The notes beneath the pieces were generated by a model, which made no database searches, had not been told where the DNA came from, and saw nothing but the letters and a program-made list of their open reading frames with translations. DNA of 64,000 nt from a virus (taxonomy: Duplodnaviria > Caudoviricetes), in the IMG/VR virus record IMGVR_UViG_3300045747_000505. The stretch is one strand, 5' to 3'. The position numbers and the translations under genes are program-made. Positions within the stretch are counted from its first letter, which is position 1. Each line of letters starts with the position of its first letter. This document shows positions 8,164 to 26,585 of the stretch, piece by piece.

Positions 8164-10731
8164 ATGAAGCGCTCGCGAATCTCTCTCGCAGTCGGCCTTC
8201 TGACCCTCCTGACAGCCTGCGGTGGTGGTAGCGTCGAGTCCGACGTCCCCTCAGCACAGACCGCCAGTGGCCAGCTTCCCACAGCCGAAGTCCACCCAAC
8301 CTTTCACATGTCGGCAGTCCTTCCGGACGAGCCGAGCGATGTCGATGCCAGCGGTGGCAGCGTCTCGGCCTTCATGCCACCGGCCTCCAAGCCCGTGCCG
8401 GTCGAGCTGCAAGGCCTCTCCACCAAGCAGCTCACTCTGCAAGCTTTGACCGACGCCAGGGGCAAGACTCACGCGCTTGCCGCTGGCTCGGTCAAGCCGA
8501 TGGTGTCGGTGTCCTACACCCCAGCTCAGATTCGCGCAGCCTACGGTCTGCCGGCGGTCGCAGCCTCCACACCCGTTCAGCTCGGCGCTGGCCAGACGAT
8601 CTACATTCTGGATGCGTACGACAACCCGACCGCGCTGGCTGACCTCAACGCCTTCTCGACGAAGTTCGGCCTCCCGCTCTGCACCAACGTCGCAGTCACG
8701 GCGGCCAACGCCTTCCCCCTCGCTGCCCCGTCCAGTGGCTGCGACTTCTCGGTCATCTACACCGACTCCACCGGCAACATCGTCCCGACGGCGCCGACCT
8801 ACGACTCTGGTTGGGCTGGTGAGATCGCTCTCGACGTTCAATGGGCTCACGCCATCGCTCCGCTCGCCCGCATCGTGCTGGTCGAAGCGCAGAACTCCTA
8901 CATCGACCGCCTCTACTACGCCACGAAGACCATCAACAAGATGGGCCCGGGCCCGGTGTCCATGTCGTTCGGTGCTCCGGAATATCCTGGCTACACCGAC
9001 ACCACTCGCGACGCCTTCCTCGCGCCTGGCTACACCTACCTCGCAGCGACTGGCGACAATGGCTACCAAGCCATGTGGCCCGCCGTGATGGGTGAAGTGG
9101 TTGCCGTCGGCGGCACCTCGCTGAACTGGTCTGGCACTGGTACTCGCACCGAGACCGCTTGGTCTGGCGCTGGTGGTGCTGTCAGTCAGTACGTGCCGCT
9201 CCCGTCGTATCAAGTCAATCTCAAGCTCGCCGATGGCTCAACGCCGACGATGCGCGCAGTGGCTGACGTCTCGATGAACGCTGACCCGTCCACTGGCCAG
9301 TACGTCGCGATGACGTACAACGGTACGGTCAACTGGTTCACGTTCGGTGGGACCAGCATGTCGACACCGATGTGGGCAGGCTTCGTCGCTCTTGGCAACG
9401 CTCAACGTGCTGCCGCTAGCCAACCTGTCATCGGTCGCATTCACAGCGCGATCTACGCCGCTGGTCAAGCTGCAACGACCTACGCGCAAGTCTTCCTCGA
9501 CGTGACGACTGGCGCCAACGGAACCTGCAAGTACTGCGCCGCCACGACGAAGTACGACATCCCGACCGGCTTCGGCACTCCCAACGGTTTCGAGATGGTG
9601 GCGAACCTCGCCAGGTACGCCACGTCGACGCCCACTCCGACCCCGACGCCCACACCGCCGGCTCCGACCCCGCCGACTTCGATCTCGGTTCCTGGTGGCA
9701 ACATCCCTGGCCGCGCTGGTGCTCCGCTCAGCTACACCCTTGGCATTCAAGCCCTGCCCAGTGGCTCGTACACCTACGCAGTGTCTGGTGTGTCTGGTGT
9801 CACGGTCAGCACGATGGGTGTCCTCACCTGGGCGAAGCCTGTCCTTGGCACGTGGAACGCTACGGTGACGGTCAAGTCGACGACTGGCCAATCAGCCAGC
9901 GGTGTCTACAAGTTCGTCATCGGTGCTGCCAACAAGGCTCCGCTGGTGCAGAACATCGCGCTCTCACTGACGACCGCTCAGACTGTCTCGACCACGCCGA
10001 TGTCCTCAGACCCCGATGGTGATGCGCTGACCTTCAAGCTCGGCTCAGTCGCTCCGGCCGGCCTGGCGCTGACAACCGCTGGTGGCCTCACCTTCGCGCC
10101 TACCACCAAGGGTGTCTACACGATCCGTGTCATCGCCACCGATACGTATGGTGCCAGCTCGACCAGCACCGCAACGTTCACGGTCACGACCGCACCGTCC
10201 ACCCCGGTCATCGAGATCGCCACGGACTTCATCGAAGTGCCAGCCGGTCTGCCCGTCAGCCTGCAAGCGGTGATCACGAACGCTGATGGTCTGAGGCCTG
10301 TGACTCGGCTGATCAACGCTCCGGCCGGAATGACGCTCAGCTCCACTGGTCTCATCACTTGGCCGAAGGCTGTGGTTGGAACCTACACGGTGACGCTCGA
10401 AGCCAAGGACCCGAGTGGCCTGACCAGTACGCACTCCTTCACCGTGCAGGCCAACGCTCCCACACCGCCGACCCTCATCGAGCTGACCCTCGCCGTCAAG
10501 CCGAACCAAGTCTTCGCGATGCAGATCCCGGCCTCGACGACGAACGGTACCTCACTGAGCTATGTCCTCTACTCTGTCAACCCGACGCCCACTCCGGTAG
10601 GTCTGACGGTTAGCTCGACTGGCATGCTTCGCTGGACCAAGACCGTGAAGGGAACCTACTTCGTCACGATCATGGTGACAGATGCCCTCGGTCTGAAGTC
10701 CTCAGGCGTCATCTCTTTGCAAGTGATGTAA
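8164..10731 (+). CDS. S53 (sedolisin/kumamolisin) protease lipoprotein with C-terminal Ig-like repeats
   Basis: Lipobox LTAC; EIALDVQWAHA (E-x3-D), GD, GGTSMSTP nucleophile, YDIPTGFGTP; PT linker; repeated beta modules. Confidence 0.9.
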   Translation: MKRSRISLAVGLLTLLTACGGGSVESDVPSAQTASGQLPTAEVHPTFHMSAVLPDEPSDVDASGGSVSAFMPPASKPVPVELQGLSTKQLTLQALTDARGKTHALAAGSVKPMVSVSYTPAQIRAAYGLPAVAASTPVQLGAGQTIYILDAYDNPTALADLNAFSTKFGLPLCTNVAVTAANAFPLAAPSSGCDFSVIYTDSTGNIVPTAPTYDSGWAGEIALDVQWAHAIAPLARIVLVEAQNSYIDRLYYATKTINKMGPGPVSMSFGAPEYPGYTDTTRDAFLAPGYTYLAATGDNGYQAMWPAVMGEVVAVGGTSLNWSGTGTRTETAWSGAGGAVSQYVPLPSYQVNLKLADGSTPTMRAVADVSMNADPSTGQYVAMTYNGTVNWFTFGGTSMSTPMWAGFVALGNAQRAAASQPVIGRIHSAIYAAGQAATTYAQVFLDVTTGANGTCKYCAATTKYDIPTGFGTPNGFEMVANLARYATSTPTPTPTPTPPAPTPPTSISVPGGNIPGRAGAPLSYTLGIQALPSGSYTYAVSGVSGVTVSTMGVLTWAKPVLGTWNATVTVKSTTGQSASGVYKFVIGAANKAPLVQNIALSLTTAQTVSTTPMSSDPDGDALTFKLGSVAPAGLALTTAGGLTFAPTTKGVYTIRVIATDTYGASSTSTATFTVTTAPSTPVIEIATDFIEVPAGLPVSLQAVITNADGLRPVTRLINAPAGMTLSSTGLITWPKAVVGTYTVTLEAKDPSGLTSTHSFTVQANAPTPPTLIELTLAVKPNQVFAMQIPASTTNGTSLSYVLYSVNPTPTPVGLTVSSTGMLRWTKTVKGTYFVTIMVTDALGLKSSGVISLQVM

Positions 10732-14806: not shown

Positions 14807-15565
14807 ATGGCCATCACTCTCAAAGAATTCCTAGTCCTGCTCGAGGACCGTACCGATCAGGCCATCAAGGACTTTGGTGCGAAGGTTGGCACCGCGCTCT
14901 CAGATGACTCGAGCCCGAACAAGCCGAAGGACGCCGAGGGCGCCATTCGCGAGCTGGCCAAGATCAGCCCAACGAACATCATGTGGCTGAGCCGCATGTA
15001 CGCTGCCAAGCAGTTCAAGCTCGAAGATGCAAGCCGCGTCAAGAAGACAATCGAGACGTTCGACAAGGTCAAGAAGAAGTTGGAGGTCAGAGACCTCAAC
15101 AACTACAAGACGCTTGGCGCTCTGTACGACGCCATCGAGCCGCACGATGGCGCTGCCGACGAGCTGTCGAAGAAGCAAGCTGCGAGACAGATCAAGACCA
15201 ATGAGACCGAAGTCTTTCTGAAGGAGCCTGACCTGCTTGTGCTCATTCCAAAGTCTGAAGCCGCTGCGTGCAAGTACGGCGCTGGCACCAAGTGGTGTAC
15301 CGCTGCTGACTCTGACAACATGTTCAGCCACTACGATGCTCAGGGCAAGCTCTACATCGTCATCGCGCCGACGCTGCCGAAGAAGGGCGACTATGAGCGC
15401 AAGTTCCAGCTGCACTATCAGACCGACTCGTTCATGGACGAGCGTGACGAGCCAGTTGGCAAGGCTGACATCAGCGCGCTGAGCAAGCTGCCGGGCTACA
15501 CGAAGTTCCTCAACAAGCTCATCAAACTTCACTACGGTCCGCACATCGACGCCCTGGAGGCGTAA
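14807..15565 (+). CDS. conserved phage hypothetical protein
   Basis: ACKYGAGTKWC..MF..Y..G.LY..KFQ motif seen in large phages. Confidence 0.75.
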   Translation: MAITLKEFLVLLEDRTDQAIKDFGAKVGTALSDDSSPNKPKDAEGAIRELAKISPTNIMWLSRMYAAKQFKLEDASRVKKTIETFDKVKKKLEVRDLNNYKTLGALYDAIEPHDGAADELSKKQAARQIKTNETEVFLKEPDLLVLIPKSEAAACKYGAGTKWCTAADSDNMFSHYDAQGKLYIVIAPTLPKKGDYERKFQLHYQTDSFMDERDEPVGKADISALSKLPGYTKFLNKLIKLHYGPHIDALEA

Positions 15566-16071
15566 TGGACCTCTACAAGTTTCACGACAAGCCGGAGACG
15601 CTTGACCATCACGACAAGGCTCAAGAGGTTGTGACCGAGCTTGTCTGGGACAAGTACAAGAATCAACCTCAAGAGCTTAAGAAGCGCGAGCACATTATTG
15701 CGAAAGATGCAGACACCGCCCTTCACTATGCCCTTCACATTCTCAAGGGCCCCTTCAAGGAAGCCGAGCCAGTCATCGCAAAGGTGCCGAAGATCGCCCT
15801 TCAGTACGCCATTCACATTCTCAAGGGTCCCTTCAAGGAAGCCGAACCAGCCATCGCAAAGAATTCACACGCCGCTTTCGGATACGCCGTACACGTTCTA
15901 CATGGCCCATTCAAAGCCGGTGAAACCGCCATTGCTTCGAGCTCATACTGCTCGTTCAGGTACGCCGCGGACGTGCTAAAGAGCCGATTCAAACCTGGCG
16001 AAGAAGCCATCAAGAAGACGCATGAATGGGGCGTCTACAAACATCTCTTCTCAATGAAGGACGACGAGTGA
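15565..16071 (+). CDS. helical-repeat protein, paralog 1
   Basis: MDLYKFHDKP; about 25-aa repeats A..YA..ILKGPFKEAEP.IAK. Confidence 0.8.
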   Translation: MDLYKFHDKPETLDHHDKAQEVVTELVWDKYKNQPQELKKREHIIAKDADTALHYALHILKGPFKEAEPVIAKVPKIALQYAIHILKGPFKEAEPAIAKNSHAAFGYAVHVLHGPFKAGETAIASSSYCSFRYAADVLKSRFKPGEEAIKKTHEWGVYKHLFSMKDDE

Positions 16072-16595
16072 ACCTCTACAAGCTTCACGACAGTCCGAAA
16101 GCGTTGTCGCATCATGACATCGCACACCTCCACGTGCCGATCGTGCTGAAGGACAAGATTCTTCATGACCTCAAGATGGGTCATCGCTCGCGCTACACCG
16201 CCTACACCGACGCTGAGCTGAAGCTTCTGGTCAAGGACCCAGCGACGGCCTACTGGCTGGCGAATCTGGACTCGATGAATACCGTGTCGCTCATTCCAAA
16301 GAGCATGGTGCCGGCGCTTGAGCGCACCATTGCCGCGCACTCAGACTACGCGTACTACTACGCTGAGAATCTGCACGGCGTTCCATGGCCGAAGATCACC
16401 GATGACAAGGCGACCGTCGAGCTGGCCGAGAAGAACATAGCCTCCAACGCCAACACGGCGTTCTACTACTCCACCGCAGTGCTCAAGGCGCCGTGGCCGC
16501 CAGGCGAGAAGGCCATCATGGCCTCTGGGCATGCTGAGGACTACGAGCTGTTCCTGGCTGGCGAGACCGATCACCTCTGGACGGCAGACTCATGA
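16068..16595 (+). CDS. helical-repeat protein, paralog 2
   Basis: GTG start, NLYKLHDSP; degenerate repeats. Confidence 0.75.
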   Translation: MNLYKLHDSPKALSHHDIAHLHVPIVLKDKILHDLKMGHRSRYTAYTDAELKLLVKDPATAYWLANLDSMNTVSLIPKSMVPALERTIAAHSDYAYYYAENLHGVPWPKITDDKATVELAEKNIASNANTAFYYSTAVLKAPWPPGEKAIMASGHAEDYELFLAGETDHLWTADS

Positions 16596-17044
16596 ACCTC
16601 TACAAACTTCACAAAGACCCAAAGTCGCTTGACCATCACGACAAGGCGCACGAGGCTGTGCCGTCAATCGTGCGCTCGCGGCTGACCACTACGTGGGCTG
16701 ACTATCCGTCGGTCGATGCCTGGGCTGATGAGGTGCGCAAGTACCGTAAGGTCTTCGCTCACACCGCAGAGGATGCCACGTGGTTTGCTAGCGTGATGCA
16801 AGAACCATTTCCAGAAGCAGAGACGGTCATAGCCACCAGCGCCGGCAATTCGTATGAGTACGCTCGACAAGTGCTTAAGGGACCCTTCAAGGCCGGTGAG
16901 CCAGCCATCGCAAAGGTGCCGGTGGTCGCCTTTGAGTACGCCACCAATGTTCTCAAGGGTCCCTTCAAGGCTGGTGAGAAGGGGATGCAGGATGATTGGA
17001 AGCTTTGGACCAAGTACTTAAAGTTTCTGGACACCCTTAAATAG
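16592..17044 (+). CDS. helical-repeat protein, paralog 3
   Basis: MNLYKLHKDP; VLKGPFKAGEP repeats. Confidence 0.8.
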   Translation: MNLYKLHKDPKSLDHHDKAHEAVPSIVRSRLTTTWADYPSVDAWADEVRKYRKVFAHTAEDATWFASVMQEPFPEAETVIATSAGNSYEYARQVLKGPFKAGEPAIAKVPVVAFEYATNVLKGPFKAGEKGMQDDWKLWTKYLKFLDTLK

Positions 17045-17071
17045 ACCTCGAACCTGGAGTATAATAGCACC

Positions 17072-17284
17072 ATGAACAAACTAGCTCAACTTGGCAAAGC
17101 CCTGCTTGCCGAAAGTGGAAAACCCTACAACGCCTTCAACGGGTTTCTGGGTCCGTTCCGCGTCGACCACGCCTACGTCAATGACGCCCGTGGCAACACC
17201 GTCGTCAACTGTGAGGGCAATCAGGCGACCGCCAAGGTCATCTGCGCTCTGCTCAACAAGACCTACCCGCCGAAGGCAAAGTGA
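17072..17284 (+). CDS. hypothetical protein
   Basis: After TATAAT; overlaps the next start. Confidence 0.65.
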   Translation: MNKLAQLGKALLAESGKPYNAFNGFLGPFRVDHAYVNDARGNTVVNCEGNQATAKVICALLNKTYPPKAK

Positions 17285-17745
17285 AGGTCGCTGAGCTGTT
17301 CGAAGCCGTTGGCAAGGCTGGCAAAGCCGGCTTCATGCCGTACGTGCTCGAGGGCGACGTGCCGATCTATCTGTTCATGGTCTCCTCAGCGTCGCAGTAC
17401 GGTGGCGCTGACCCACAGATCTCGAAGGGCCACATCGACGCCGGTGAGGACGCCAAGACCGCCGGAGTTCGTGAGGCAGAGGAGGAGCTCGGACTGCGCA
17501 AGTCTAACCTCATCTCCACCATCGAGGGTTGGAGCGGCACGCAGACCGGGCTCGACGCAACCTACAAGATGACCATCTTCGCCGGTCAAGTGAAGTCCAA
17601 GTCTGCCTTCGACAAGCCGCACTACGAGACGAAGGAGACCGTTTGGCTCTCCGCCGCGGACTTCGCCACGAAGGGTCGCAAGGCGCAGAACTCCATCGTC
17701 GCAGCCGTTGACAAGTCAGTTCGAGCTTCGTTACAATCAACCTAG
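17281..17745 (+). CDS. NUDIX hydrolase
   Basis: Nudix box GHIDAGEDAKTAGVREAEEELG. Confidence 0.9.
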   Translation: MKVAELFEAVGKAGKAGFMPYVLEGDVPIYLFMVSSASQYGGADPQISKGHIDAGEDAKTAGVREAEEELGLRKSNLISTIEGWSGTQTGLDATYKMTIFAGQVKSKSAFDKPHYETKETVWLSAADFATKGRKAQNSIVAAVDKSVRASLQST

Positions 17746-18019
17746 GACTGTTACACTTAAAAGTGTGCAGACCGCCAAAACCGTGTTATAGTACATCTAT
17801 CGACACGAACACAGCAATGTGTTCAGGTTGAGACGAGAACGGTCTCCGCCGAACCTGAAAATTGTCTTGTACGAAGCTCAGGAACGTGTTATAGTTCAAC
17901 TCTGGTGATGCGACAAGTGCGCTGATCGCTGATCCTTGAAACAACCTTCCGCGAAATCTTCGGAAATCGCTAAATAGAAACATCGCCGCAAGGCACTGGA
18001 ACCAACTTAGGAAACCATC

Positions 18020-18154
18020 GTGAACTTCACTCGCAACACTTTCAAAACAACGGAGATGCATTGGCAGCAACGCCAACACGTCACCGTGCGCTTTGAGATT
18101 AAGCGAGACGAGAATGATACGACCCTCCCAGGTCAGGAGAAGCTAGCAGCGTAA
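18020..18154 (+). CDS. putative leader peptide (44 aa) of the tRNA operon
   Basis: AGGAAA RBS, GTG start, ends KLAA*; overlaps alternative-stem sequence. Confidence 0.55.
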   Translation: MNFTRNTFKTTEMHWQQRQHVTVRFEIKRDENDTTLPGQEKLAA

Positions 18155-18180
18155 GCAGCAAGCCTTCACCAAACTCCAAG

Positions 18181-18213
18181 ACCTGGGACCTTAGCGCAAG
18201 CAAGGTCCCAGGT
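18181..18213 (+). terminator. 12-bp hairpin, putative attenuator
   Basis: ACCTGGGACCTT / AAGGTCCCAGGT; 5' arm is also complementary to 18126-18134. Confidence 0.55.
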
Positions 18214-18352
18214 TCGTCTTAGAAAGAACCTCGCGTCAGGATTCGCGAGCAACAAATAACGCCAGACCGCTGTGATACTAGCCGGAGAACCTACGTGAGG
18301 CTAGAGGAGTGCGAGATAGGATGAATATGGCTTGATCCGGACTTCGGTCCGG

Positions 18353-18450
18353 ATCTATTTCAAACACGCTGACCGAATCGCAATCGAAGGTTATCCTTTC
18401 ACGATCTCCCCTTCAACCGCACTTAACTTGTCGGCATGTTTGAAATAGAT
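18353..18450 (+). ncRNA. Y-RNA-like element 1
   Basis: 14-bp closing stem; GCUGA-C-CGA / UUG-UCGGC bulged-C helix; pyrimidine-rich loop. Confidence 0.6.
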
Positions 18451-18455
18451 TCAAT

Positions 18456-18532
18456 TGGTCGTTAGCTCAATCAGGCAGAGCACTCGCCTCCAAAGCGATA
18501 GGTTGTGGGTTCGATTCCTACACGGCCAGCCA
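18456..18532 (+). tRNA. tRNA-Trp(CCA)
   Basis: Cloverleaf, loop CT-CCA-AA, 3' CCA. Confidence 0.9.
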
Positions 18533-18541
18533 AATTTGAAT

Positions 18542-18616
18542 GCCTTCATAGCTCAGTGGTAGAGCACCGTCTTGATAAGGCGTAGGTCCTTGGTTCGATC
18601 CCAAGTGAAGGCACCA
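18542..18616 (+). tRNA. tRNA-Ile(GAT)
   Basis: Loop TT-GAT-AA, 3' CCA. Confidence 0.9.
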
Positions 18617-18627
18617 AGTTATTCAAT

Positions 18628-18702
18628 GCCGAGTTGGACTTTTGGTGAGGTCCTCTGCCCTTCAAGCAGAAGAGACGGGTTCGATTCCCGTACTCGGTAC
18701 CA
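18628..18702 (+). tRNA. tRNA-Glu(TTC), C33 variant
   Basis: TCTGC-CCTTCAA-GCAGA, 3' CCA. Confidence 0.85.
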
Positions 18703-18712
18703 ACAATTCTGT

Positions 18713-18786
18713 TGGGGTCTGGTGTTCTGGTGAACACAGTCGGCTTTGACCCGACCGAGGTGGGTTCGATCCCCACGTCCCCTGCA
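18713..18786 (+). tRNA. tRNA-Gln(TTG), no encoded CCA, imperfect acceptor stem
   Basis: GTCGG-CTTTGAC-CCGAC, TTCGATC T-loop. Confidence 0.7.
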
Positions 18787-18835
18787 TCCCGCATCGCAGT
18801 TCAGCACACATCTTTTTGTGTTACAATGAACTGCG

Positions 18836-19471
18836 ATGCAAAAGCCACCTAAGACTTACCACTACCTTTATCGAACAACCTGTCTTGTGACAGGCAAGTT
18901 CTATGTTGGTATGCACTCAACAGACGACCTCAACGACGGTTATCTTGGGAGCGGAAAGATTTTAGGTCGCTCTCGCAAAAAGCATGGTGACGAAAAACAT
19001 GTGAAAGAAATTCTTGAACACTGTGCCTCTCGTGAAGCGCTGAAACTTCGTGAGAAGGAAATAGTCTCAGCAGAGATGCTCGCCAACCCGTTGAACATCA
19101 ATTTGAAGATTGGCGGCGAAGGCGGTTGGGATCATATACCGCAGGAGGTAGTTCTATCGAACCTCTCAAAAAGAAATGTTGGTTGGGCGACCTACAACAG
19201 ATCAGAAAAGGGAAGGCTCAAAGCCTCTGAAAACATTCGCAAGATAAATGTTGTTGGTCGAAAGTCTTCTTATGGTTTTCGTGGCAAACAACATACCGAT
19301 GAAACTAAACAAATTCAAAGCCAGCACCATCAAGGTGCTGGCAACTCTCAATACGGAACTTGTTGGGTAACCAAAGACAACAAGTCATCCAAAATCAAAA
19401 AGACTGACCTTGACGAATACCTCGCTAATGGTTTCTCGAAAGGCAGAGTAATTTCTAAAATGGTGATGTAG
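18836..19471 (+). mobile_element. Seg-like GIY-YIG homing endonuclease
   Basis: YLYRTT..KFYVGMHST..GYLGSG; NUMOD-like HTDETK; SQYGTCWV; AT-richer than flanks. Confidence 0.85.
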
Positions 19472-19587
19472 TGTAGTGGCAGCACAGAAAACATCGTTCG
19501 CGCTTTTTGTTGCGCAAGTAACCGCTTGTGAATGGTTATCTTTATCATCCAAAGCTAGGGTTGGTTCGAATCCAGCCATCACCACCA
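19462..19587 (+). ncRNA. tRNA-like RNA with about 50-nt insertion in the anticodon arm
   Basis: 7-bp acceptor GGTGATG/CATCACC + ACCA, D-arm and T-arm present, about 74 nt between them. Confidence 0.6.
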
Positions 19588-19595
19588 AAATCAAT

Positions 19596-19671
19596 TCCGT
19601 CTTAGTATTCTCGGCGAGTACCTCCGGCTGTTAACCGGATGAGTCTGGTTCGAATCCAGAAGACGGAGCCA
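19596..19671 (+). tRNA. tRNA-Asn(GTT)
   Basis: TCCGG-CTGTTAA-CCGGA, CCA. Confidence 0.9.
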
Positions 19672-19679
19672 AGATCTGA

Positions 19680-19752
19680 TGGGGAGCGTCAAGGTTTGAC
19701 CGACTCGGCTCTGACCCGAGTTGCTTAGGTTCGAGTCCTAACTCCCTTGCCA
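19680..19752 (+). tRNA. tRNA-Gln(CTG)
   Basis: CTCGG-CTCTGAC-CCGAG, CCA. Confidence 0.85.
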
Positions 19753-19760
19753 AATTCTAT

Positions 19761-19836
19761 GCGTCGTTATCCGATGTGGTCATGGAAGCTCCCTGAAGAG
19801 GAGATAAACCGGGTTCGATTCCTGGACGACGCACCA
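19761..19836 (+). tRNA. tRNA-Phe(GAA)
   Basis: Loop CT-GAA-GA, CCA. Confidence 0.85.
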
Positions 19837-19844
19837 ATTATAAT

Positions 19845-19919
19845 ACTCGCTTGGTTCAGTGGTGGAACGCTTCCTTGACATGGAAGAGGTCGCAGGTCCG
19901 ATTCCTGCAGCGAGTACCA
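19845..19919 (+). tRNA. tRNA-Val(GAC)
   Basis: CTTCC-TTGACAT-GGAAG, variant T-loop TCCGAT, CCA. Confidence 0.85.
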
Positions 19920-19927
19920 AATTACAT

Positions 19928-20002
19928 GGGGTGCAAACTTTGACGGTGAAGCTCTGGCTCTTAACCAGATGGAAGACAGTTCGAATCTGTCGCGCCCCAC
20001 CA
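19928..20002 (+). tRNA. tRNA-Lys(CTT)
   Basis: TCTGG-CTCTTAA-CCAGA, CCA. Confidence 0.85.
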
Positions 20003-20010
20003 AACACAAT

Positions 20011-20080
20011 ACCCGGTCCAATGGATTGGCTGCGGTCCTACGAAGGCTGCGTGATCGGTTCGACTCCGATACTGGGTTCA
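20011..20080 (+). tRNA. tRNA-Arg(ACG), short D-arm, no CCA
   Basis: CGGTC-CTACGAA-GGCTG. Confidence 0.7.
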
Positions 20081-20087
20081 TGATAAT

Positions 20088-20162
20088 GGGTTCGTAGCTC
20101 AGAGGCAGAGCAGGCGGCTCTTAACCGTCAGGCCGAGATTTCGAAATTCTCCGGACCCACCA
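20088..20162 (+). tRNA. tRNA-Lys(CTT), second
   Basis: GGCGG-CTCTTAA-CCGTC, CCA. Confidence 0.88.
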
Positions 20163-20168
20163 AGATAC

Positions 20169-20232
20169 AGACAACCGTACGACTCAGCGTTATCCTGTTA
20201 AGATTCCCCGCTTTGTCACTCCTTTGTTGTCT
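20169..20232 (+). ncRNA. Y-RNA-like element 2
   Basis: AGACAA-C-CG / UG-UUGUCU bulged helix; inner loop TTATCCT..GATTCCC shared with element 1. Confidence 0.55.
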
Positions 20233-20236
20233 CAAT

Positions 20237-20312
20237 ATCCCGTTCGTCTAGCGGCCAAGGACACTGCCCCCTCAAGGCGGGAACTCCGGTTCAAATCCGG
20301 AACGGGATTCCA
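20237..20312 (+). tRNA. tRNA-Glu(CTC), C33 variant
   Basis: CTGCC-CCCTCAA-GGCGG, CCA. Confidence 0.85.
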
Positions 20313-20320
20313 AATACAAT

Positions 20321-20395
20321 ACCGAGTTGGACTTTTGGTGAGGTCCTCTGCCCTTCAAGCAGAAGAGACGGGTTCGATTCCCGTACTCGGTACCA
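20321..20395 (+). tRNA. tRNA-Glu(TTC), near-identical duplicate of 18628
   Basis: Differs only at base 1 (A vs G). Confidence 0.85.
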
Positions 20396-20402
20396 GCATA
20401 AT

Positions 20403-20477
20403 GGATCGGTAGCCTAACGGTCAGGCACCTCTCTGTCTAAGAGGTTCAAGCGGGTTCGACTCCCGTCCGGTCCGCCA
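20403..20477 (+). tRNA. tRNA-Asp(GTC)
   Basis: CCTCT-CTGTCTA-AGAGG, CCA. Confidence 0.9.
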
Positions 20478-20483
20478 GCATGT

Positions 20484-20559
20484 AGGCTTTAGAGTGATTG
20501 GAAATCCTATCCCTTTCATGAGGGGATGTTGCGAGGTTTGAATCCTCGATAGCCCGCCA
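20484..20559 (+). tRNA. atypical tRNA(CAT) (Met/Ile2-like)
   Basis: TCCCT-TTCATGA-GGGGA, 1:72 mismatch, T-loop TTTGAAT, CCA. Confidence 0.55.
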
Positions 20560-20569
20560 GATATTCAAT

Positions 20570-20643
20570 GGTGGTTCTAGTGTAGTGGCAGCAAGACGGT
20601 CTGTGAAACCGTAAGGCAGGGTTCGATTCCCGGTCCCACCCCA
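20570..20643 (+). tRNA. tRNA-His(GTG), mismatched acceptor stem
   Basis: G-1 and C73; ACGGT-CTGTGAA-ACCGT. Confidence 0.75.
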
Positions 20644-20664
20644 CCTGATTCAGATAAATAGAAG

Positions 20665-21309
20665 ATGAACAAACATCATCTAGTTTATCGCACGACGAAC
20701 CTTCTGAACGGAAGGTATTACATCGGCATCCATTCAACGTCGAACATCGACGATGGGTATCTTGGTAGCGGTCGTAGGATCAAGGCGGAAATCAAGAAGT
20801 ACGGTCAAGAGAATTTCAAGCGTGAGATCCTTGAGTCATACCCAACAAGGCAAGAAGTCTTGAAACGCGAAGCCGAATTGGTCACTGAAGAACTTCGTCA
20901 AGATTCGCTCTGTCTGAATCTTAAGAATGGCGGCGAAGGCGGTTGGGAACATCTGAATGACAACTCTGAGGTCCAACGCGCAAAAGGACGTAAAGGAAAT
21001 GCCAGCATCAAGATCTTGGCAAATGATCCTATTTGGGCCGCATCAAGAAGCGCAGCAATCAGCAATGGTCTTCGCGGAAAGTCTGCTGGGTGGAGTGAAC
21101 AAGCAACAATGGCTTCGCACACCGATGAAGTAAATCAAAAGCGAAGTCGCACAATGAAAGACTTGGCAAGGCAATCAGGCCAAGCAAATTCCCAGTTCGG
21201 AACCTGTTGGGTGACCAACGGGTTTCCAATAAAGATCAAGAAACAAGATCTCGATTCGTATCTGACAAATGGATATGTTCGAGGAAGAACAAAACAATGG
21301 TGCACGTAG
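20665..21309 (+). mobile_element. Seg-like GIY-YIG homing endonuclease
   Basis: LVYRTT..RYYIGIHST..GYLGSG; SQFGTCWV; paralog of 18836. Confidence 0.85.
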
Positions 21310-21375
21310 ATCAATTGGTAGATCCCGGGATTGTGATTCCCGTCGTTGTGGGTTCGAGTCCCATCGTGCACCCCA
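21299..21375 (+). tRNA. tRNA-His(GTG)
   Basis: G-1, C73; CGGGA-TTGTGAT-TCCCG; CCA. Confidence 0.9.
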
Positions 21376-21385
21376 GTATTTCAAT

Positions 21386-21459
21386 GCCCTCGTAGCACAT
21401 TGGTCGTGCGCACCTTTGGTATGGGTGAGAACAGAGTTCGATTCTCTGCTTGGGCACCA
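21386..21459 (+). tRNA. tRNA-Thr(GGT)
   Basis: CACCT-TTGGTAT-GGGTG, CCA. Confidence 0.88.
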
Positions 21460-21467
21460 ACTATAAC

Positions 21468-21543
21468 GCCCGCGAAGTATTACCTGGTGGTACGCGTCTT
21501 TCGTACGGATGAGGACTCAGTTCGAGGCTGAGCGTGGGCTCCA
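21468..21543 (+). tRNA. tRNA-Thr(CGT)
   Basis: CGTCT-TTCGTAC-GGATG, CCA. Confidence 0.8.
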
Positions 21544-21550
21544 GTACAAT

Positions 21551-21628
21551 TGTGGTCGAGCAAGCAAGGTGTATGCACCGCACTGTTAATGCGGACAGAG
21601 CCGGGTTCGATTCCTGGGACCACAGCCA
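21551..21628 (+). tRNA. tRNA-Asn(GTT), second
   Basis: CCGCA-CTGTTAA-TGCGG, CCA. Confidence 0.88.
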
Positions 21629-21637
21629 GATCAAAGT

Positions 21638-21712
21638 GTCTCCGTAGTTCAACGGAGAGAATAGGACGCTACGAACGTTCAGACGGGGGTTCGATTCCCT
21701 CCGGAGGCACCA
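21638..21712 (+). tRNA. tRNA-Arg(ACG), second
   Basis: GGACG-CTACGAA-CGTTC, CCA. Confidence 0.88.
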
Positions 21713-21749
21713 CTATAAATAAGTCATCGCAACTCAACCGGATAAGCGT

Positions 21750-21995
21750 ATGACACTCCTTCAAGAACTCCTTGACCTGCCAAACAAAGCGCCAAAGGCC
21801 TTCAAGGCCGGCGACAAGTTTGACATCACCAACAATGGCCTTCACTTCACCATCGAGGTGGTCGCCGCCGACAAGGGTCCGTCTGAACTTCAGATCGAGA
21901 CCGTGCGCGATGGCAAGGCTCGCAAGAGCTACACCGATGCGCTTGAGCTCAGCGCTCGCCTTCGCGACTGCGAGAAGTTCAAGAAGGTCAAGTAA
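21750..21995 (+). CDS. small late protein
   Basis: TATAAATA at 21714; MTLLQELLDL resembles the 35073 N-terminus. Confidence 0.7.
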   Translation: MTLLQELLDLPNKAPKAFKAGDKFDITNNGLHFTIEVVAADKGPSELQIETVRDGKARKSYTDALELSARLRDCEKFKKVK

Positions 21996-22003
21996 CAATC
22001 AAT

Positions 22004-22078
22004 GGTGCTGAAGCTGAATGGTTAAGCAGCGGTCTCATAAGCCGTGCGTCGTGGGTTCGATTCCCACCAGCACCACCA
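22004..22078 (+). tRNA. tRNA-Met/Ile2(CAT)
   Basis: GCGGT-CTCATAA-GCCGT, CCA. Confidence 0.88.
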
Positions 22079-22199
22079 ATTACAAGAGGTCGATGCCGGC
22101 ACCTACGAGGCCGTTGTCGTACGAGTCTAACAACTTGAAAGGACGCATCATGCGTACAGTGTCATCGACGCTTGATGCGTCTCGAAAACGAACCCCTTT

Positions 22200-22273
22200 G
22201 GGGGCGTAGTTAAGTGGTATAACATGCGGCTTTTACCCGTTCGTCCTGAGTTCGATTCTCAGTGCCCCTACCA
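22200..22273 (+). tRNA. tRNA-Lys(TTT)
   Basis: Loop CT-TTT-AC, CCA. Confidence 0.85.
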
Positions 22274-22558
22274 TTATTGAACCAGCCAGTTCATCCTTAT
22301 GTTACCTAGAGGTAACTCTCGCTATGTTACCTAGGTAACATAACCACACTGTGAAATCGACATTCCCCGTATATAGATTATGAACCGCCTTATGTGCAGT
22401 ACTGCACTTAGTGTTCTGTACTGTACAGACTTTCCGCTGTGCTTTGTTCGGGGGCGTATAAATACATTCAACGAGCAGCAAGACTCGTCGAGGTAGCGCA
22501 GACCAAATCAGGCCATTGGCCTTTTAGGCGACGAACCACAAGGTTCGTCGCCCTCTTT

Positions 22559-22630
22559 ACCCCTGCCGAAGGAGCGGTGGCCGGCCTTCTAAGCTGGCAT
22601 ATGTGAGTTCGAGTCTCACCAGGGGTTCCA
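22559..22630 (+). tRNA. tRNA-Arg(TCT)
   Basis: CCGGC-CTTCTAA-GCTGG, CCA; short D-arm. Confidence 0.8.
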
Positions 22631-22867
22631 GATTGATGTAGATCAATTAAACCGCAATGACCGAAACCTTTTCTAGGTTCGGGTCAGTTTATGTGTTTAT
22701 TGACTGGTGTTTCTAAAGTGATTCGTGTAAATACATCTGTCCAGTACAGAACATAACAGTCCCAAAGAGGACTGCAAGAATTGTGGGAACCAACCCATGA
22801 CGGTAACGGCGACGCACACCGCTAGTCTTTGCTCACGCAATGTGAGCCGAGCATTAAGGAGCGGTCA

Positions 22868-23806
22868 ATGCCAACAGCAACCACAAATGAGACGGTACCT
22901 CCGAAGATGATCGACGCAGTCGTCGGTCTTGACGGTCTGCCTCTCAATATTGCGGTGGCCATCGAAGCAACCCGCAACGTTGACAACAACAGCGCCACAG
23001 CCACAATTCAACAGGCTAGTGTCGCAACCAAAGGGGAAACTACTATGGCAGACATCGTTACCGGCACCACCACGGGCCAACTCGACACCACCGCGCTCAT
23101 GCAGGACCACGCCGACATCCGTCGTGAAAATGCACAAAGCGAAGCACAGGTTCGTCGTGACATTCAATCAACCAGCGGCGATTCTCGTCGCGAAGCAGCC
23201 GAGATCGGCGCCGCAAGCGCCTATCAGAACGCTACTCAACACGCCGGCATCGTCGACCAGGTGAAGTCTGCTGGTTGGGCCAACTCGGACCGCACCGGCA
23301 CCGAAGCTGACCGCGTCGTCGGTCAGGGCACCGCCTACTTCATCGCTGAGCAGCAGTACGCTTTCAACAACGCTACCGCCGTAGCTGCGCTGAAGGCCGG
23401 CACTGACATGCAGTTCGCGAACACTCTCAGCGCCATCAATTCCGCAGCCCAAATGGGTCAGGCAGCGACGGCTCTTGAAGGTGCGAAGTCGGCTGCAGCT
23501 GCAGCTCTCGGCCAAGCCCTCATCGGCCAGCAAATCGTTGCTGACGGCAACAACACCCGCGCGCTCATCAACGAGCTCAAGATGGAGCAGCTCAACCGCG
23601 AACTCATCGAGCGCAACGCTGCTCTCGTCGAGGCACGTGGTGACTGCCGCTACTGGCAGGGTGGCTACAACCAGTCGCAGTTCGCCGCTGTGACCTCCCA
23701 GCTTCAGGCCTTTCAGAGCCAGCTCTCTGAGACCCGCCAAGGCATGGTGAACTTCGGTACTCAATCCGGAGTTGGTCAGACCGCGACCACGAACTCCGTT
23801 CGTTAA
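22868..23806 (+). CDS. Ala/Gln-rich coiled-coil protein (possible second in-frame start at 23045)
   Basis: AAGGAG RBS before 22868; GGGGA RBS before 23045. Confidence 0.7.
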   Translation: MPTATTNETVPPKMIDAVVGLDGLPLNIAVAIEATRNVDNNSATATIQQASVATKGETTMADIVTGTTTGQLDTTALMQDHADIRRENAQSEAQVRRDIQSTSGDSRREAAEIGAASAYQNATQHAGIVDQVKSAGWANSDRTGTEADRVVGQGTAYFIAEQQYAFNNATAVAALKAGTDMQFANTLSAINSAAQMGQAATALEGAKSAAAAALGQALIGQQIVADGNNTRALINELKMEQLNRELIERNAALVEARGDCRYWQGGYNQSQFAAVTSQLQAFQSQLSETRQGMVNFGTQSGVGQTATTNSVR

Positions 23807-23851
23807 TTGGATGAGGGTGGAGCTAGCTCCACCCACCTTCAAGGACGCATC

Positions 23852-24667
23852 ATGGCAGTACTTGGACCACTAGAGCGCGAGTTGATTGAACTCAACTCTG
23901 CGATTTCAAACCTCCGCAGCCGCGCTGAAGGGGTGGTCTTTCACTCACAAACTGGAACGGACGCTCAAGTGCAAACAATCATCCCATCAGTCTCTGGCGG
24001 TGCCGGCAACGACATCATCAACGTTGAGGTGAATGAATCATGCGTTTGTCCACCTGGTCCTCCGGGTCCAGAGGGGCCACCAGGCCCGGTTGGTCCGCAG
24101 GGTCCGACAGGTCCTCAAGGCCCATTTGGTCCTCAAGGCTCGCAGGGTTCACAAGGCTCTGTTGGTCCAGCCGGACCTCAAGGCGATCCAGGGCCAGTGG
24201 GTTCACCAGGACCCGTTGGCCCACAAGGCGATCCAGGCCAGACAGGCCCGATTGGTCCTCCAGGTCCTATTGGCCCAGTGGGTTCGACAGGTCCTTCGGG
24301 GCCTCAAGGTCCGATTGGTCCCGCCGGTCCGCAAGGTCCAATAGGCCCCGTTGGTCCGCAAGGGCCACCAGGCAAGTGTGAGTGTGACCGAGCCACGCAG
24401 CTCATCTCGGCAGACTACGAAGCACAGATCACAGACTTTTATATCGGGGTCTCAGCGAAGGGTCCTGTAAAGATCCTCCTACCACAAAAAGCGCCAGATG
24501 GCACGTGGCTCATAGTGAAGCTTGAGATGGGAGCGCCGATCGGAACACGAAAGGTCACGCTGGATGGGAATGGGGCAACAATCGATGATGCCGCCACTAT
24601 CACCATGACCAAAGCCTACGAGATCGTTTGGTTGATCAGCCGTGGCGGGTCCTGGTTCGTGGTGTAA
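23852..24667 (+). CDS. collagen-like protein (about 36 Gly-X-Y triplets)
   Basis: Uninterrupted GPP/GPQ run flanked by CVC and CEC; globular C-terminal domain. Confidence 0.9.
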
Positions 24668-24701
24668 TTTCATTGACAAACGTGCGAAAGGGAACAACAG
24701 C

Positions 24702-24926
24702 ATGTACTACAACAACTATCCATACTACAACAACTATTTTCGGAGACCATATGGGTATGGTCACGGTGGGGGCTACTGCCCAACCTGTGGTCACGCTCAC
24801 TCTTGGTCTCATCCGGCTTTGATTGGAAGCCAGTTGTCGTCGATCAACCAATCGCTGCTGAACTACGGCGTGCAAACGAACGTGCTTCAACAGGCAATCG
24901 CAAATCAGGCCTTGGGTTACTACTAA
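24702..24926 (+). CDS. small Tyr/Gly-rich protein
   Basis: MYYNNYPYYNNY..CPTCGH. Confidence 0.6.
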   Translation: MYYNNYPYYNNYFRRPYGYGHGGGYCPTCGHAHSWSHPALIGSQLSSINQSLLNYGVQTNVLQQAIANQALGYY

Positions 24927-24935
24927 GGCTATGAG

Positions 24936-25184
24936 GTGTTATCCGTTCAAGACCTGCTTCGTAAAGCCAACTGGCTACTAAGCGCTCGCGAAGAGTGGGA
25001 GCCGCCAGTCGGCTTCTTCATGCGCCCGTGCGACACCATCGCACGTGAGCTGCTTGACCTGAGCGATGACAAGACGCAGGCGATAGGCCGACTGGATGAC
25101 TACATCAATATCACTAGAGCAGCCTTAGACGATGACGACCTGAATCGCCTAGAGCGAGCCAGGAAAATCATCAACGATAAATAG
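24936..25184 (+). CDS. hypothetical protein
   Basis: GAGG RBS, GTG start. Confidence 0.55.
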   Translation: MLSVQDLLRKANWLLSAREEWEPPVGFFMRPCDTIARELLDLSDDKTQAIGRLDDYINITRAALDDDDLNRLERARKIINDK

Positions 25185-25187
25185 AGC

Positions 25188-25258
25188 ATCGCCACCAATG
25201 GATTGGCATCAGGCCTCCGAAGCCAGATTGGCGGGTTCGAATCCCGCTGGCGGTTCCA
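25188..25258 (+). tRNA. tRNA-Arg(CCG)
   Basis: Loop CT-CCG-AA, GGTTCGAATCC, CCA; D-arm CCAATGGATTGG as in 20011. Confidence 0.8.
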
Positions 25259-25768
25259 TCACTTGACCGTGTACCCCACGAGGTACTTCGCCGGAACCTT
25301 TGCGTTCACGCGCAGCTCTGCGAGCTGATAGAACTGCTGGTCATTGCTATCGAACTTGTCGTATTCATCCTTGTTGAGCAGCCGCTTCAGATGAAGTGGG
25401 TCGTTGCCACGCAGGTCAGGGTCACGGTGCGCCGTCACCCAAGCGCGCGGTAGGTCGAACACGAGCGTGATGCGCTCGTTCTCATGAATGGTTTGCGCCT
25501 TCGCACCAGCCTTGCGAAACTCTGCCTCACCACCCATTGATGCAAACGCTCTTGCCGTGTATGGTTCAAGCGCGAAGGAGATCATGCCGGTGCCAGCGTC
25601 GAGGCGATCAAGGCCAGTCTTGGCGATCGACTCAAGATGCTTGAGCTGGGTGCCGTGATAGACGCGCAGCGGATTCTTGTCCTCCCACCAGCCGATGGTT
25701 GGATTCTTTTCCCACGGCAGCTTCGGCACCTCTCGTGCTTCGGCGATGAATTGTTTGAAGGTCAGCAT
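25259..25768 (-). CDS. ADP-ribosyltransferase-fold (Tpt1/KptA-like) protein with capsid-targeting-like N-terminus
   Basis: VYHGTQLKHLESIAKTGL..ISF..AE; MLTFKQFIAEA. Confidence 0.65.
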   Translation of the reverse strand: MLTFKQFIAEAREVPKLPWEKNPTIGWWEDKNPLRVYHGTQLKHLESIAKTGLDRLDAGTGMISFALEPYTARAFASMGGEAEFRKAGAKAQTIHENERITLVFDLPRAWVTAHRDPDLRGNDPLHLKRLLNKDEYDKFDSNDQQFYQLAELRVNAKVPAKYLVGYTVK

Positions 25769-25810
25769 TGGAAATCCTGTGTTGGTCTTCTATTTAGATA
25801 AATACAGCAC

Positions 25811-25886
25811 GGGTCAGTAGCTCAATTGGCAGAGTTCTGGTCTCCAAAACCAGCGGTTCGGGGTTCGAGTCCCTGCTGGCCCGCCA
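25811..25886 (+). tRNA. tRNA-Trp(CCA), second
   Basis: CTGGT-CTCCAAA-ACCAG, CCA. Confidence 0.9.
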
Positions 25887-25958
25887 CGCAACCTGAGAAT
25901 CGTTCAACACAATTTCGGTGCGCGTGATACAATAGAGCATCAACAACAGGCATCCATC

Positions 25959-26585
25959 ATGCAAAGACGCCGTGTCTACATCATCGCTGCCTTACTGATT
26001 GCATTCTCTGCTCTTGGGCTAGGCGTTCTACTTTACAAGTCATCAGGTTCATCCTCGCCGTCGGCTCCAGCAGGCGGCAGCGGTTCATCAGGCGCCGTCG
26101 GGCAACCCGTGCTGATGGTTGCCACAGTGGCAGCCGCCGCACCTCGGGTTGAGGCTCGTTCTGAGCGCCCAACCACACGAGCACGCCCGCTCTCAACTCG
26201 AACCAGCGAACCAGCACCAACCGTTCAGGCGGCTGCGCAAGAGCCAGCGCTGCCTGACGAACCCACGGGCGCCGGCCCAATGTCAATCGACGAGCAGCCT
26301 ACGTTTGCTGGTTCAGGTGGTGGTTGGGGTTCAGGCACGCCGACCAGCGCACCGGTTGAGGGTGGTGGCGGTGCGCCGATGGCTAGCGCTCTCTCCTTTC
26401 AGACGTTCGGTGGTGGTGGCAGCGTCATCAGCTCGCCATCACCTGCGCCGACCATTGACACGCGCAACGGCATTCCACGCACATCGGTTCAGGTTCCGAC
26501 CTCGCCGGTTGATGAGCCGAATCTGGTGTGGTTGATGCTCGCAGGTCTTGGAGCGCTGTCCTTCAAAGCTCGTCGGAACAAGTGA
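25959..26585 (+). CDS. PEP-CTERM-like sorted surface protein
   Basis: N-term TM, S/G/P/A low-complexity body, C-term VDEP-TM(LAGLGAL)-KARRNK. Confidence 0.8.
   Translation: MQRRRVYIIAALLIAFSALGLGVLLYKSSGSSSPSAPAGGSGSSGAVGQPVLMVATVAAAAPRVEARSERPTTRARPLSTRTSEPAPTVQAAAQEPALPDEPTGAGPMSIDEQPTFAGSGGGWGSGTPTSAPVEGGGGAPMASALSFQTFGGGGSVISSPSPAPTIDTRNGIPRTSVQVPTSPVDEPNLVWLMLAGLGALSFKARRNK

Follow-up and report, generated by a model that had tools for sequence, protein, structure and literature searches.

Analysis of a 64,000-nucleotide (nt) stretch of the virus record IMGVR_UViG_3300045747_000505 (Duplodnaviria; Caudoviricetes), referred to here as the window, centred on a leader that lies between a NUDIX gene and a large array of transfer RNA (tRNA) genes and that carries a short open reading frame (ORF) followed by mutually exclusive RNA stems. 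The window is part of an uncultured jumbo phage with metagenome sources in pond, wetland and freshwater, and its distant relatives include Ralstonia phage RsoM2USA, Xanthomonas phages XacN1 and Xoo-sp13, and Agrobacterium phage Atu_ph07. The NUDIX gene (17281-17745) is followed by 711 nt without genes, which hold the leader, and then by the tRNA array from 18456. The ORF and the array occupy the following positions.

18010..18013, plus strand: Shine-Dalgarno (SD) sequence AGGA, 6 nt 5' of the GTG start codon, with GGA invariant
18020..18154, plus strand: putative leader ORF of 44 codons, from GTG at 18020 to TAA at 18152-18154, with codons 2-35 (18023-18124) as the candidate sensor
18456..22627, plus strand: the tRNA array that the leader would regulate, comprising 22 tRNAs, an Arg(UCU)-like gene, two inserted ORFs and a tRNA-shaped RNA, as seen with ARAGORN, Rfam and folding

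ARAGORN placed 22 tRNAs at 18456-22273 and one further tRNA at 25811, and these 23 genes carry 17 different anticodons, which together serve 13 amino acids (W, I, E, Q, N, F, V, K, D, M, H, T and R). A tRNA-Arg(UCU)-like cloverleaf at 22559-22627, with the anticodon loop CUUCUAA, was missed by ARAGORN and scored 28.9 bits against Rfam, just below the cut-off; because it adds to the 22 tRNAs and the one at 25811, a previous estimate of about 25 tRNA genes was roughly right. Rfam searches over 17000-26500, with E-values up to 10, returned no family but tRNA. The two ORFs inside the array (18836-19471 and 20665-21309) are paralogous, encode about 212 amino acids each and, judged by an N-terminal motif alone (...YRTT.L..G..Y.G.HST), look like GIY-YIG homing endonucleases.

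Comparison of the leader ORF with the array revealed that the ORF is written almost entirely in codons that the array reads. The AGGA-preceded frame of 44 codons had been proposed in a sequence-only reading of the window, and its coordinates, GTG at 18020 to TAA at 18154, were verified directly; that reading had also remarked on the many different amino acids and codons in the peptide, an observation that was borne out and can now be extended, as the construction of the ORF from array-read codons had only been hinted at. Residues 2-35 (34/34) are confined to the 13 amino acids of the array (D, E, F, H, I, K, M, N, Q, R, T, V and W), 32 of the 34 sensor codons are read directly by array tRNAs under standard wobble rules, and each of the 17 anticodon species is matched by one or more sensor codons. 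The amino acids for which the array has no tRNA (A, C, G, L, P, S and Y) occur only past codon 35, where the RNA switch begins. With an in-set share of about 57% among the residues of the phage's own genes, 34 consecutive in-set residues are expected at 6.5e-9; the best of 15,832 34-codon windows in phage genes reached 29/34, and 0 of 300,000 dinucleotide-preserving shuffles of the sensor's 102 nt reached 33. Among 620 six-frame ORFs the leader ranked first, the runner-up scoring 28, and no other in-set run, whatever the frame, reaches 18 residues in the 64 kilobases (kb). Coverage of all 17 anticodons, given in-set codons, has a probability of about 0.06.

Relatives of the leader were assembled by several routes. 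NUDIX homologues together with one conserved DNA word gave loci L002/L003/L004, L009/L010 and L006/L011; L013 was obtained by searching with the leader peptide itself; and a profile search gave 14 more distant leader peptides, leading to loci L015/L016, L017-L019 and L020, the last of which sits on G001, an IMG/VR contig of 349,660 nt that is 97% complete. Three loci with more distant NUDIX homologues (L007, L008 and L012) were dropped, the array not lying downstream of their NUDIX genes. A DNA search of 50,697 cultured-phage records with the 761-nt leader gave zero matches, a 20-kb megablast gave tRNA-sized matches only, an IMG/VR search with the NUDIX protein led to a single locus, L001, that is not syntenic, neither the terminator hairpin nor an invariant block downstream of it turned up in exact-pattern scans of IMG/VR, and leader-peptide searches of INPHARED and IMG/VR gave no useful match. 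In sum, at least six lineages of uncultured jumbo phages from freshwater retain the leader system and, wherever downstream DNA is available, the leader is followed by the hairpin and then by an array in which tRNA-Trp comes first. The NUDIX protein of the window is 64-66% identical to that of L002 or L006, yet the leader DNA is largely identical or near-identical, which argues that the leader is under strong selection.

The codon catalogue is maintained across these lineages. Replacements between close lineages remain in-set (H/D/V, T/N, I/N, T/M, T/K and N/K), the lone Ile codon shifts from codon 27 to codon 30 or 31 and is never lost, and Asp codons likewise relocate between lineages and persist. 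Pooled over 16 peptides, about 4% of sensor residues are out-of-set compared to about 43% expected; those of the distant members are mostly Ser and Gly, and the core W-Q-Q-x-Q...V-R-F is strongly conserved even among these members. The catalogue rule is strong, not absolute.

Several features of the alignment point to translation of the ORF. The ORF, its start codon and AGGA are retained in 10 sequences of six lineages, and the spacing from AGGA to the start is fixed while the flanking bases vary; SD-like 4-mers precede 20 of the 49 long ORFs of the window compared to 12% of random sites. In the 22-codon gap-free core of the 10 sequences, codon positions 1, 2 and 3 show 12, 10 and 23 variant states, respectively, with 15 extra synonymous codons, and the sensor indels found in further relatives are 3 nt long. 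The frame in which the window reads the conserved RNA word TCCCAGGT differs from that of all relatives, and a +1/-1 indel pair flanking the word keeps the ORF open to the same stop. On these grounds the ORF is probably translated. A hairpin within the ORF RNA (UUGGC...GCCAA) is kept throughout and, by analogy with the trp 1:2 structure, may be a pause hairpin. In contrast to the sensor, the C-terminus of the peptide is variable, and for this reason the proposal that its terminal LAA is a ClpX-type degron had to be abandoned: the relatives end in QAA, HTA, KVS and GDS, and the last codons of the window fall where the frame of the TCCCAGGT-type conserved RNA motif differs from that of the relatives.

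The 97%-complete relative G001 carries two arrays, and comparison of the two showed that the catalogue is specific to each. Array 2, which lies behind the homologous leader, serves a set of the kind seen in the window, namely W, F, E, K, N, R, H, Q, D, V(gac), I(gat), T and A(cgc), and array 1, almost complementary to it, holds V(tac), Y, A, S, C, T(tgt), L, P, G and I(tat). About 0.9 kb upstream of array 1 is a 32-codon ORF, likewise starting GTG-AAC, in which residues 3-26 are array-1 amino acids only; Leu is encoded in it by five different codons, Ser by three and Gly by two, in line with the different tRNAs for these amino acids, and it is the highest-scoring ORF of its region. A hairpin homologous to the array-2 terminator lies 3' of this ORF. 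The array-1 leader comes from one genome, as an IMG/VR search with the gene upstream of it returned only G001. Nevertheless, two paralogous leaders of complementary composition, each preceding the matching array, are very hard to explain without codon sensing.

Two exceptions to this separation were also seen. The GTG (Val) codon that is invariant in array-2 leaders, at 18086-18088 in the window, is not read by tRNA-Val(GAC) of array 2; the tRNA that reads it in G001 is tRNA-Val(UAC), with which array 1 opens. In the other direction, codon 2 of the array-1 leader is AAC, an array-2 codon (L021 10899-10901, minus strand). This reciprocal match between leaders and arrays may represent cross-talk or chance.

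The RNA that follows the sensor has the elements of a transcriptional switch, which occupy the following positions.

18126..18134, plus strand: segment A, the antiterminator 5' strand, TCCCAGGTC, within codons 36-39, pairing with 18180-18188
18136..18177, plus strand: middle hairpin enclosed by A:B, whose GUAA tetraloop (18151-18154) holds the stop codon
18180..18192, plus strand: segment B, the terminator 5' arm and the partner of both A and C, with GACCTGGGA at 18180-18188
18202..18221, plus strand: segment C, the terminator 3' arm (18202-18214) and U-rich tail, UUCGUCUU
18211..18230, plus strand: small C:D stem GGTTC/GAACC of 5 base pairs (bp), 18211-18215 with 18226-18230

The pairings put forward in the sequence-only reading were confirmed. 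TCCCAGGTC at 18126-18134 is the exact complement of GACCTGGGA at 18180-18188; the 12-bp hairpin pairs 18181-18192 with 18202-18213, or 13 bp counting the G18180-U18214 wobble; and the GGTTC/GAACC stem (18211-18215/18226-18230) covaries as GGTTT/AAACC in L002 and L006. This stem could hold C in the read-through form. Nascent and full-length RNAs were folded for seven lineages: in nascent RNA reaching up to the terminator loop, where C is absent, A pairs with B in 7/7, and in full-length RNA with C the fold of lowest energy is the terminator. Relative to shuffles, the stretch of 261 nt around the ORF has a folding z of −7.0.

Compensatory changes were found throughout the switch. The A:B helix is 7-10 bp across all lineages with the stop codon inside the antiterminator, and in L015 and L020 one base pair is inverted in A, B and C alike, which read CCCTGG, CCAGGG and CCCTGG, respectively, compared to CCCAGG, CCTGGG and CCCAGG in the others. 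L013 replaces T/A of A/B by C/G and retains T in segment C as a G-U wobble, and the window, L015 and L020 each lengthen A:B by different extra pairs. The terminator upper stem differs wholly between lineages and still pairs (CCTT/AAGG, CTAGTC/GATTAG and CCAAATC/GATTTGG); in the middle hairpin GCGTAAGC is invariant and the outer helix GGAG/CUCC is variable with pairing kept. Spacing is likewise constrained, with 19-20 nt from A to the stop in 9/10 sequences (11 nt in L017) and 24-27 nt from the stop to B in 10/10. U-tracts are good in L006, L017 and L020, and the better tracts of the relatives read TTTGTTTTGT, TTTTTGTTTTT and GTTGTTTTTT.

Taken together, the leader combines an SD-preceded ORF, codons matching the array, a candidate intrinsic terminator (the 13-bp GC-rich stem at 18180-18214) and an antiterminator that excludes it, and these are the marks of a ribosome-mediated attenuator. 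We propose, with a probability of roughly 0.7, that expression of the array depends on the decoding speed of the codons that the array itself reads. Every computational test run (ORF conservation, in-frame indels, third-position bias, compensatory changes, U-tracts and codon match) favoured the translation-sensing attenuator suggested at the outset. The anatomy, conservation, covariation and codon match are computed results, from which we infer translation of the ORF, termination in vivo and a kinetic switch.

According to this model, tandem promoter-like sites upstream would give rise to transcripts carrying the 44-codon leader, the first 35 codons of which would serve as a catalogue of the array's codons. 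Scarcity, depletion or cleavage of a cognate charged tRNA would stall a ribosome within the catalogue, at any codon to about 32, and A would then be free to pair with B once B is transcribed, forming an extended antiterminator composed of A:B and the GUAA-capped hairpin; C would then go to the small C:D stem and RNA polymerase would continue into the tRNA genes. If decoding is fast, a ribosome at codons 36-45 would cover A and open the stop-codon hairpin, A:B would be blocked, B would pair with C, and transcription would end at the U-rich tail. The predicted outcome is negative feedback giving an on-demand supply of tRNA, separate for each array. Possible triggers include depletion of host tRNAs, cleavage by host anticodon nucleases and a late shift in codon demand.

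A search for similar leaders before other phage tRNA arrays, also suggested earlier, identified non-homologous equivalents, each with a short ORF, an antiterminator, a terminator and a tRNA cluster, in the cultured phages RsoM2USA and Atu_ph07. In RsoM2USA (MG752970.1, complement 87248..87361), an unannotated SD-preceded 37-codon ORF has 30/30 core residues in the set of the downstream cluster (Met, Ile, Asn, Asn, Gln, Lys, Arg, Phe, Ala, Val, Phe, Pro, Lys, Asp and Thr) and ranks first of 388 ORFs, the runner-up reaching 26, with the cluster boundary set after the peptide was seen. The final codons of this ORF, together with the stop, pair in a long hairpin with the terminator's 5' arm; the terminator is of canonical form and lies 10 nt before tRNA-Met. 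In Atu_ph07 (MF403008.1, complement 339118..339246), a 42-codon ORF, which the record lists as a hypothetical protein, includes every one of the 11 amino acids served by the next 14 tRNAs, with Thr and Asn in addition, and TCCGGTTCC in codons 32-34 pairs with GGAACCGGG, the 5' arm of a textbook terminator. Short ORFs (18-80 codons) lying no more than 450 nt upstream of a tRNA were also scanned, crudely and blind, at 13 loci in seven phages; of the 315 ORFs, the RsoM2USA leader ranked first (1.6e-7) and the window leader second (7e-7).

On balance we lean toward the broader view that jumbo phages generally use codon-catalogue feedback, in which tRNAs are sorted into arrays, each with its own codon-listing leader gating an attenuator, such that about 13 amino acids would be sensed at once and tRNAs running short, for example after host shut-off or the action of anticodon nucleases, would be replaced. 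At least three unrelated groups of phages would have evolved or retained such a system, namely the freshwater clade, RsoM2USA and Atu_ph07.

A number of observations weigh against attenuation of this kind. The catalogue is imperfect in distant lineages: the peptide P0024, from L017, has five out-of-set residues, with Ser, Gly and Thr genes absent from the visible 17-tRNA part of its incomplete array, and the peptide P0021 contains P, S, L and G. One helix within the ORF covaries at the expense of the peptide (UUUCAAA/UUUGAGA versus UUCAUUAA/UUAAUGAA), and third codon positions are also highly conserved, so that part of the apparent coding signal could arise at the RNA level. The U-tract of the window, UUCGUCUU, is mediocre and that of L015 is poorer. 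About 240 nt of other conserved RNA separate the terminator from the first tRNA, where an internal promoter is possible, and in G001 three promoter-like repeats (TGTTGTATAATAGCTTCATCGG) lie between the array-1 hairpin and array 1, where the attenuator could govern only part of transcription. XacN1, Xoo-sp13 and CM1 gave no convincing leader in the crude scan, which does not imply absence. Finally, every equilibrium fold of the window leader gives the terminator, whether or not a ribosome footprint is masked; as equilibrium folding never favours A:B, the switch must be kinetic, with A:B forming first. A kinetic, antiterminator-first decision is established for classical attenuators.

Some of these observations would be expected if the leader were instead a structured non-coding RNA, serving as a processing, pausing or protein-binding module of the tRNA precursor, with the frame a by-product and A, B and C serving folding or processing. 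The very strong fold (z = −7), the conserved helices in the ORF, one of them covarying at the peptide's cost, the near-invariant nucleotides including third positions, and the abundance of conserved RNA elements nearby are all consistent with such a module. Nevertheless we consider it unlikely, since it leaves unexplained why 34 codons avoid seven common amino acids (33/34 was reached by none of the 300,000 shuffles, and the 64 kb have no other such run), why the avoided set is exactly that lacking in the array, why a paralogous leader of complementary composition precedes a complementary array, and why indels are in-frame and AGGA and the start invariant.

An equally improbable alternative accepts that the ORF is translated and senses decoding and places the output elsewhere, in Rho-dependent termination, in processing or stability of the precursor or in folding of downstream RNA, or reverses the logic. 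It could accommodate the weak U-tract of the window, the 240 nt of further conserved RNA after the hairpin, the thermodynamic dominance of the terminator whatever is masked, and the promoter-like repeats after the hairpin of G001 array 1. However, most relatives and both cultured-phage analogues have textbook stem and U-tract terminators directly 3' of the ORF, and the geometry is that of classical attenuation, with the stop inside the antiterminator and A just past the last sensor codon. Least probable is that the ORF is simply a small protein-coding gene that has a terminator of its own and no relation to the tRNAs (these would have a separate promoter downstream), its composition being coincidental or that of a polar functional peptide: although its conserved W-Q-Q-x-Q...V-R-F core resembles that of a functional peptide, gene callers predict the ORF in many metagenomes and the Atu_ph07 ORF is annotated as a hypothetical protein, the ORF is always immediately 5' of an array in which tRNA-Trp comes first, its composition has a chance probability below 1e-6, its C-terminal third is in different frames in different lineages, and three non-homologous ORFs with the same layout precede tRNA clusters in unrelated phages.

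The attenuator that we favour resembles several known systems without coinciding with any of them. The enterobacterial trpL, hisL, leuL, thrL, ilvL and pheL leaders share with it an SD-preceded short ORF, codons that sense charged tRNA, an antiterminator competing with a stronger terminator and a decision set by ribosome position. Among these, ilvL and thrL sense two or three amino acids. The phage leader differs from trpL-type leaders in that it would regulate tRNAs rather than enzymes and is phage-encoded; its sensor is a list of about 34 codons covering 13 amino acids and 17 anticodons, not a run of a single codon; and in place of the 1-2-3-4 scheme its switch has three segments and a small fourth stem, with the stop in the apical loop of the antiterminator. 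The Rfam His, Trp, Leu and Thr leader families were not matched, the searches returning only tRNA and chance-level matches. The pheM leader of pheST provides an example of leader-peptide attenuation of an aminoacyl-tRNA synthetase gene, sensing Phe only and controlling a host gene with a protein product; like the phage leader, it places a component of the translation apparatus under attenuation rather than a biosynthetic pathway.

Other regulatory RNAs show more limited similarity. T-box riboswitches (RF00230) also sense tRNA status and set an antiterminator against a terminator before translation-related genes, but they bind uncharged tRNA through a specifier codon and the T-box bulge, without an ORF, and identity with a T-box was rejected, as no RF00230 match was found in 17700-18460 with E-values up to 10. 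Leaders of the rrn type with boxA likewise have tandem promoters and a long structured leader before stable-RNA genes, and the G001 array-1 leader has an exact GCTCTTTAACAA, but rrn leaders have no sensing ORF. The window leader contains no GCTCTTTAACAA-like boxA, and the 64 kb hold only two matches with two mismatches (15973 and 50720), which is at chance level. GOLLD and ROOL are also conserved, highly structured RNAs adjoining phage tRNA genes; here, in contrast, a composition-constrained ORF and a terminator switch would explain the core, and a GOLLD- or ROOL-like or other known non-coding RNA was rejected for lack of any Rfam match.

Carriage of tRNAs by phages and its control have been debated for decades, the main ideas being codon compensation and replacement of tRNAs destroyed by host defences, and cleavage by host anticodon nucleases is the current explanation for many phage tRNAs (PMC10264068, PMC11555353). 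A full-text literature search found no report of a regulatory device for a phage tRNA array, nor of leader-peptide attenuation of tRNA genes in any organism. Leader-peptide attenuation itself is classical; none of the papers found describes its application to tRNA targets, a codon-catalogue sensor, specificity for each array or the phage setting. If the proposal is correct, tRNA genes would join the classical attenuation regulon, the leader would be the most multiplexed natural codon sensor known, with one peptide addressing 17 anticodons, and its composition would reveal which decoding steps the phage treats as limiting. The presence of equivalents in two cultured phages with tractable hosts makes the idea testable, and the design would be a ready-made part for synthetic biology, acting as a global sensor of tRNA supply.

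Additional conserved elements flank the ORF and the switch, as follows.

17708..17737, plus strand: candidate sigma-70-like promoter TTGACA-N18-TACAAT, overlapping the 3' end of the NUDIX gene (11/12 matches in a consensus scan)
17783-17792 and 17886-17895, plus strand: two copies of GTGTTATAGT, extended −10-like promoter motifs, upstream of the leader ORF
17968..17994, plus strand: CGCTAAATAGAA motif and small GNRA hairpin (GCC-GCAA-GGC, 17985-17994), about 30-50 nt 5' of the start codon
18231..18322, plus strand: conserved hairpin (18231-18250) and invariant block (18255-18322), defined by alignment, with no Rfam match
18356..18450, plus strand: structured element directly 5' of tRNA-Trp with a long covarying closing stem, defined by folding and alignment

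Upstream of the ORF, CGTTAC..T of the 17708-17737 promoter-like site is conserved in relatives, and the two exact copies of GTGTTATAGT, both within this leader, are invariant in relatives. The same type of motif (TGTTATAAT/TGTTAAAAT and GCTTCATCGG) precedes the leader of L020, and from their sequence the GTGTTATAGT copies could act as promoters. The CGCTAAATAGAA motif is conserved across all lineages, with covariation in its hairpin (GCC/GGC versus GUC/GAC in L002), and a similar motif, CGCATATATAGA, lies upstream of both G001 leaders.

Downstream of the switch, three lineages whose flanking NUDIX proteins share only about 65% identity have exactly the same 68-nt block at 18255-18322, which contains the hairpin CTAGCC...GGCTAG. 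L015 has a diverged copy in which pairing is kept by covariation (CTGCC...GGCAG), and in L013 and L017 the block is replaced by a different conserved element. The element at 18356-18450 ends 5 nt before tRNA-Trp, and its closing stem of 11-17 bp differs in sequence yet pairs in the window, L002 and L006.

Contigs of relatives that span the leader are present in two freshwater RNA libraries, a weak hint of expression, as DNA carry-over is possible and the contigs give no transcript ends, strand or level. The exact boxA-like word GCTCTTTAACAA of the array-1 leader (L021 ~10128-10139, minus strand) lies downstream of three tandem TGTTGTATAATAGCTTCATCGG repeats, and array-2 leaders are without this word. 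Upstream of both G001 arrays (L022, G001:C1:257800-260000), two tRNAs with a CUA anticodon lie beside a transfer-messenger RNA gene with the tag ANEANYRMAA. In L011, a 110-amino-acid ORF (1470-1802) is inserted between the promoter-like region and the leader ORF, leaving the ORF and switch intact. Finally, upstream of the NUDIX gene, positions 14807-17044 of the window hold a run of paralogous ORFs sharing the repeated motifs ...HILKGPFKEAEP.IAK.. and VLKGPFKAGE.

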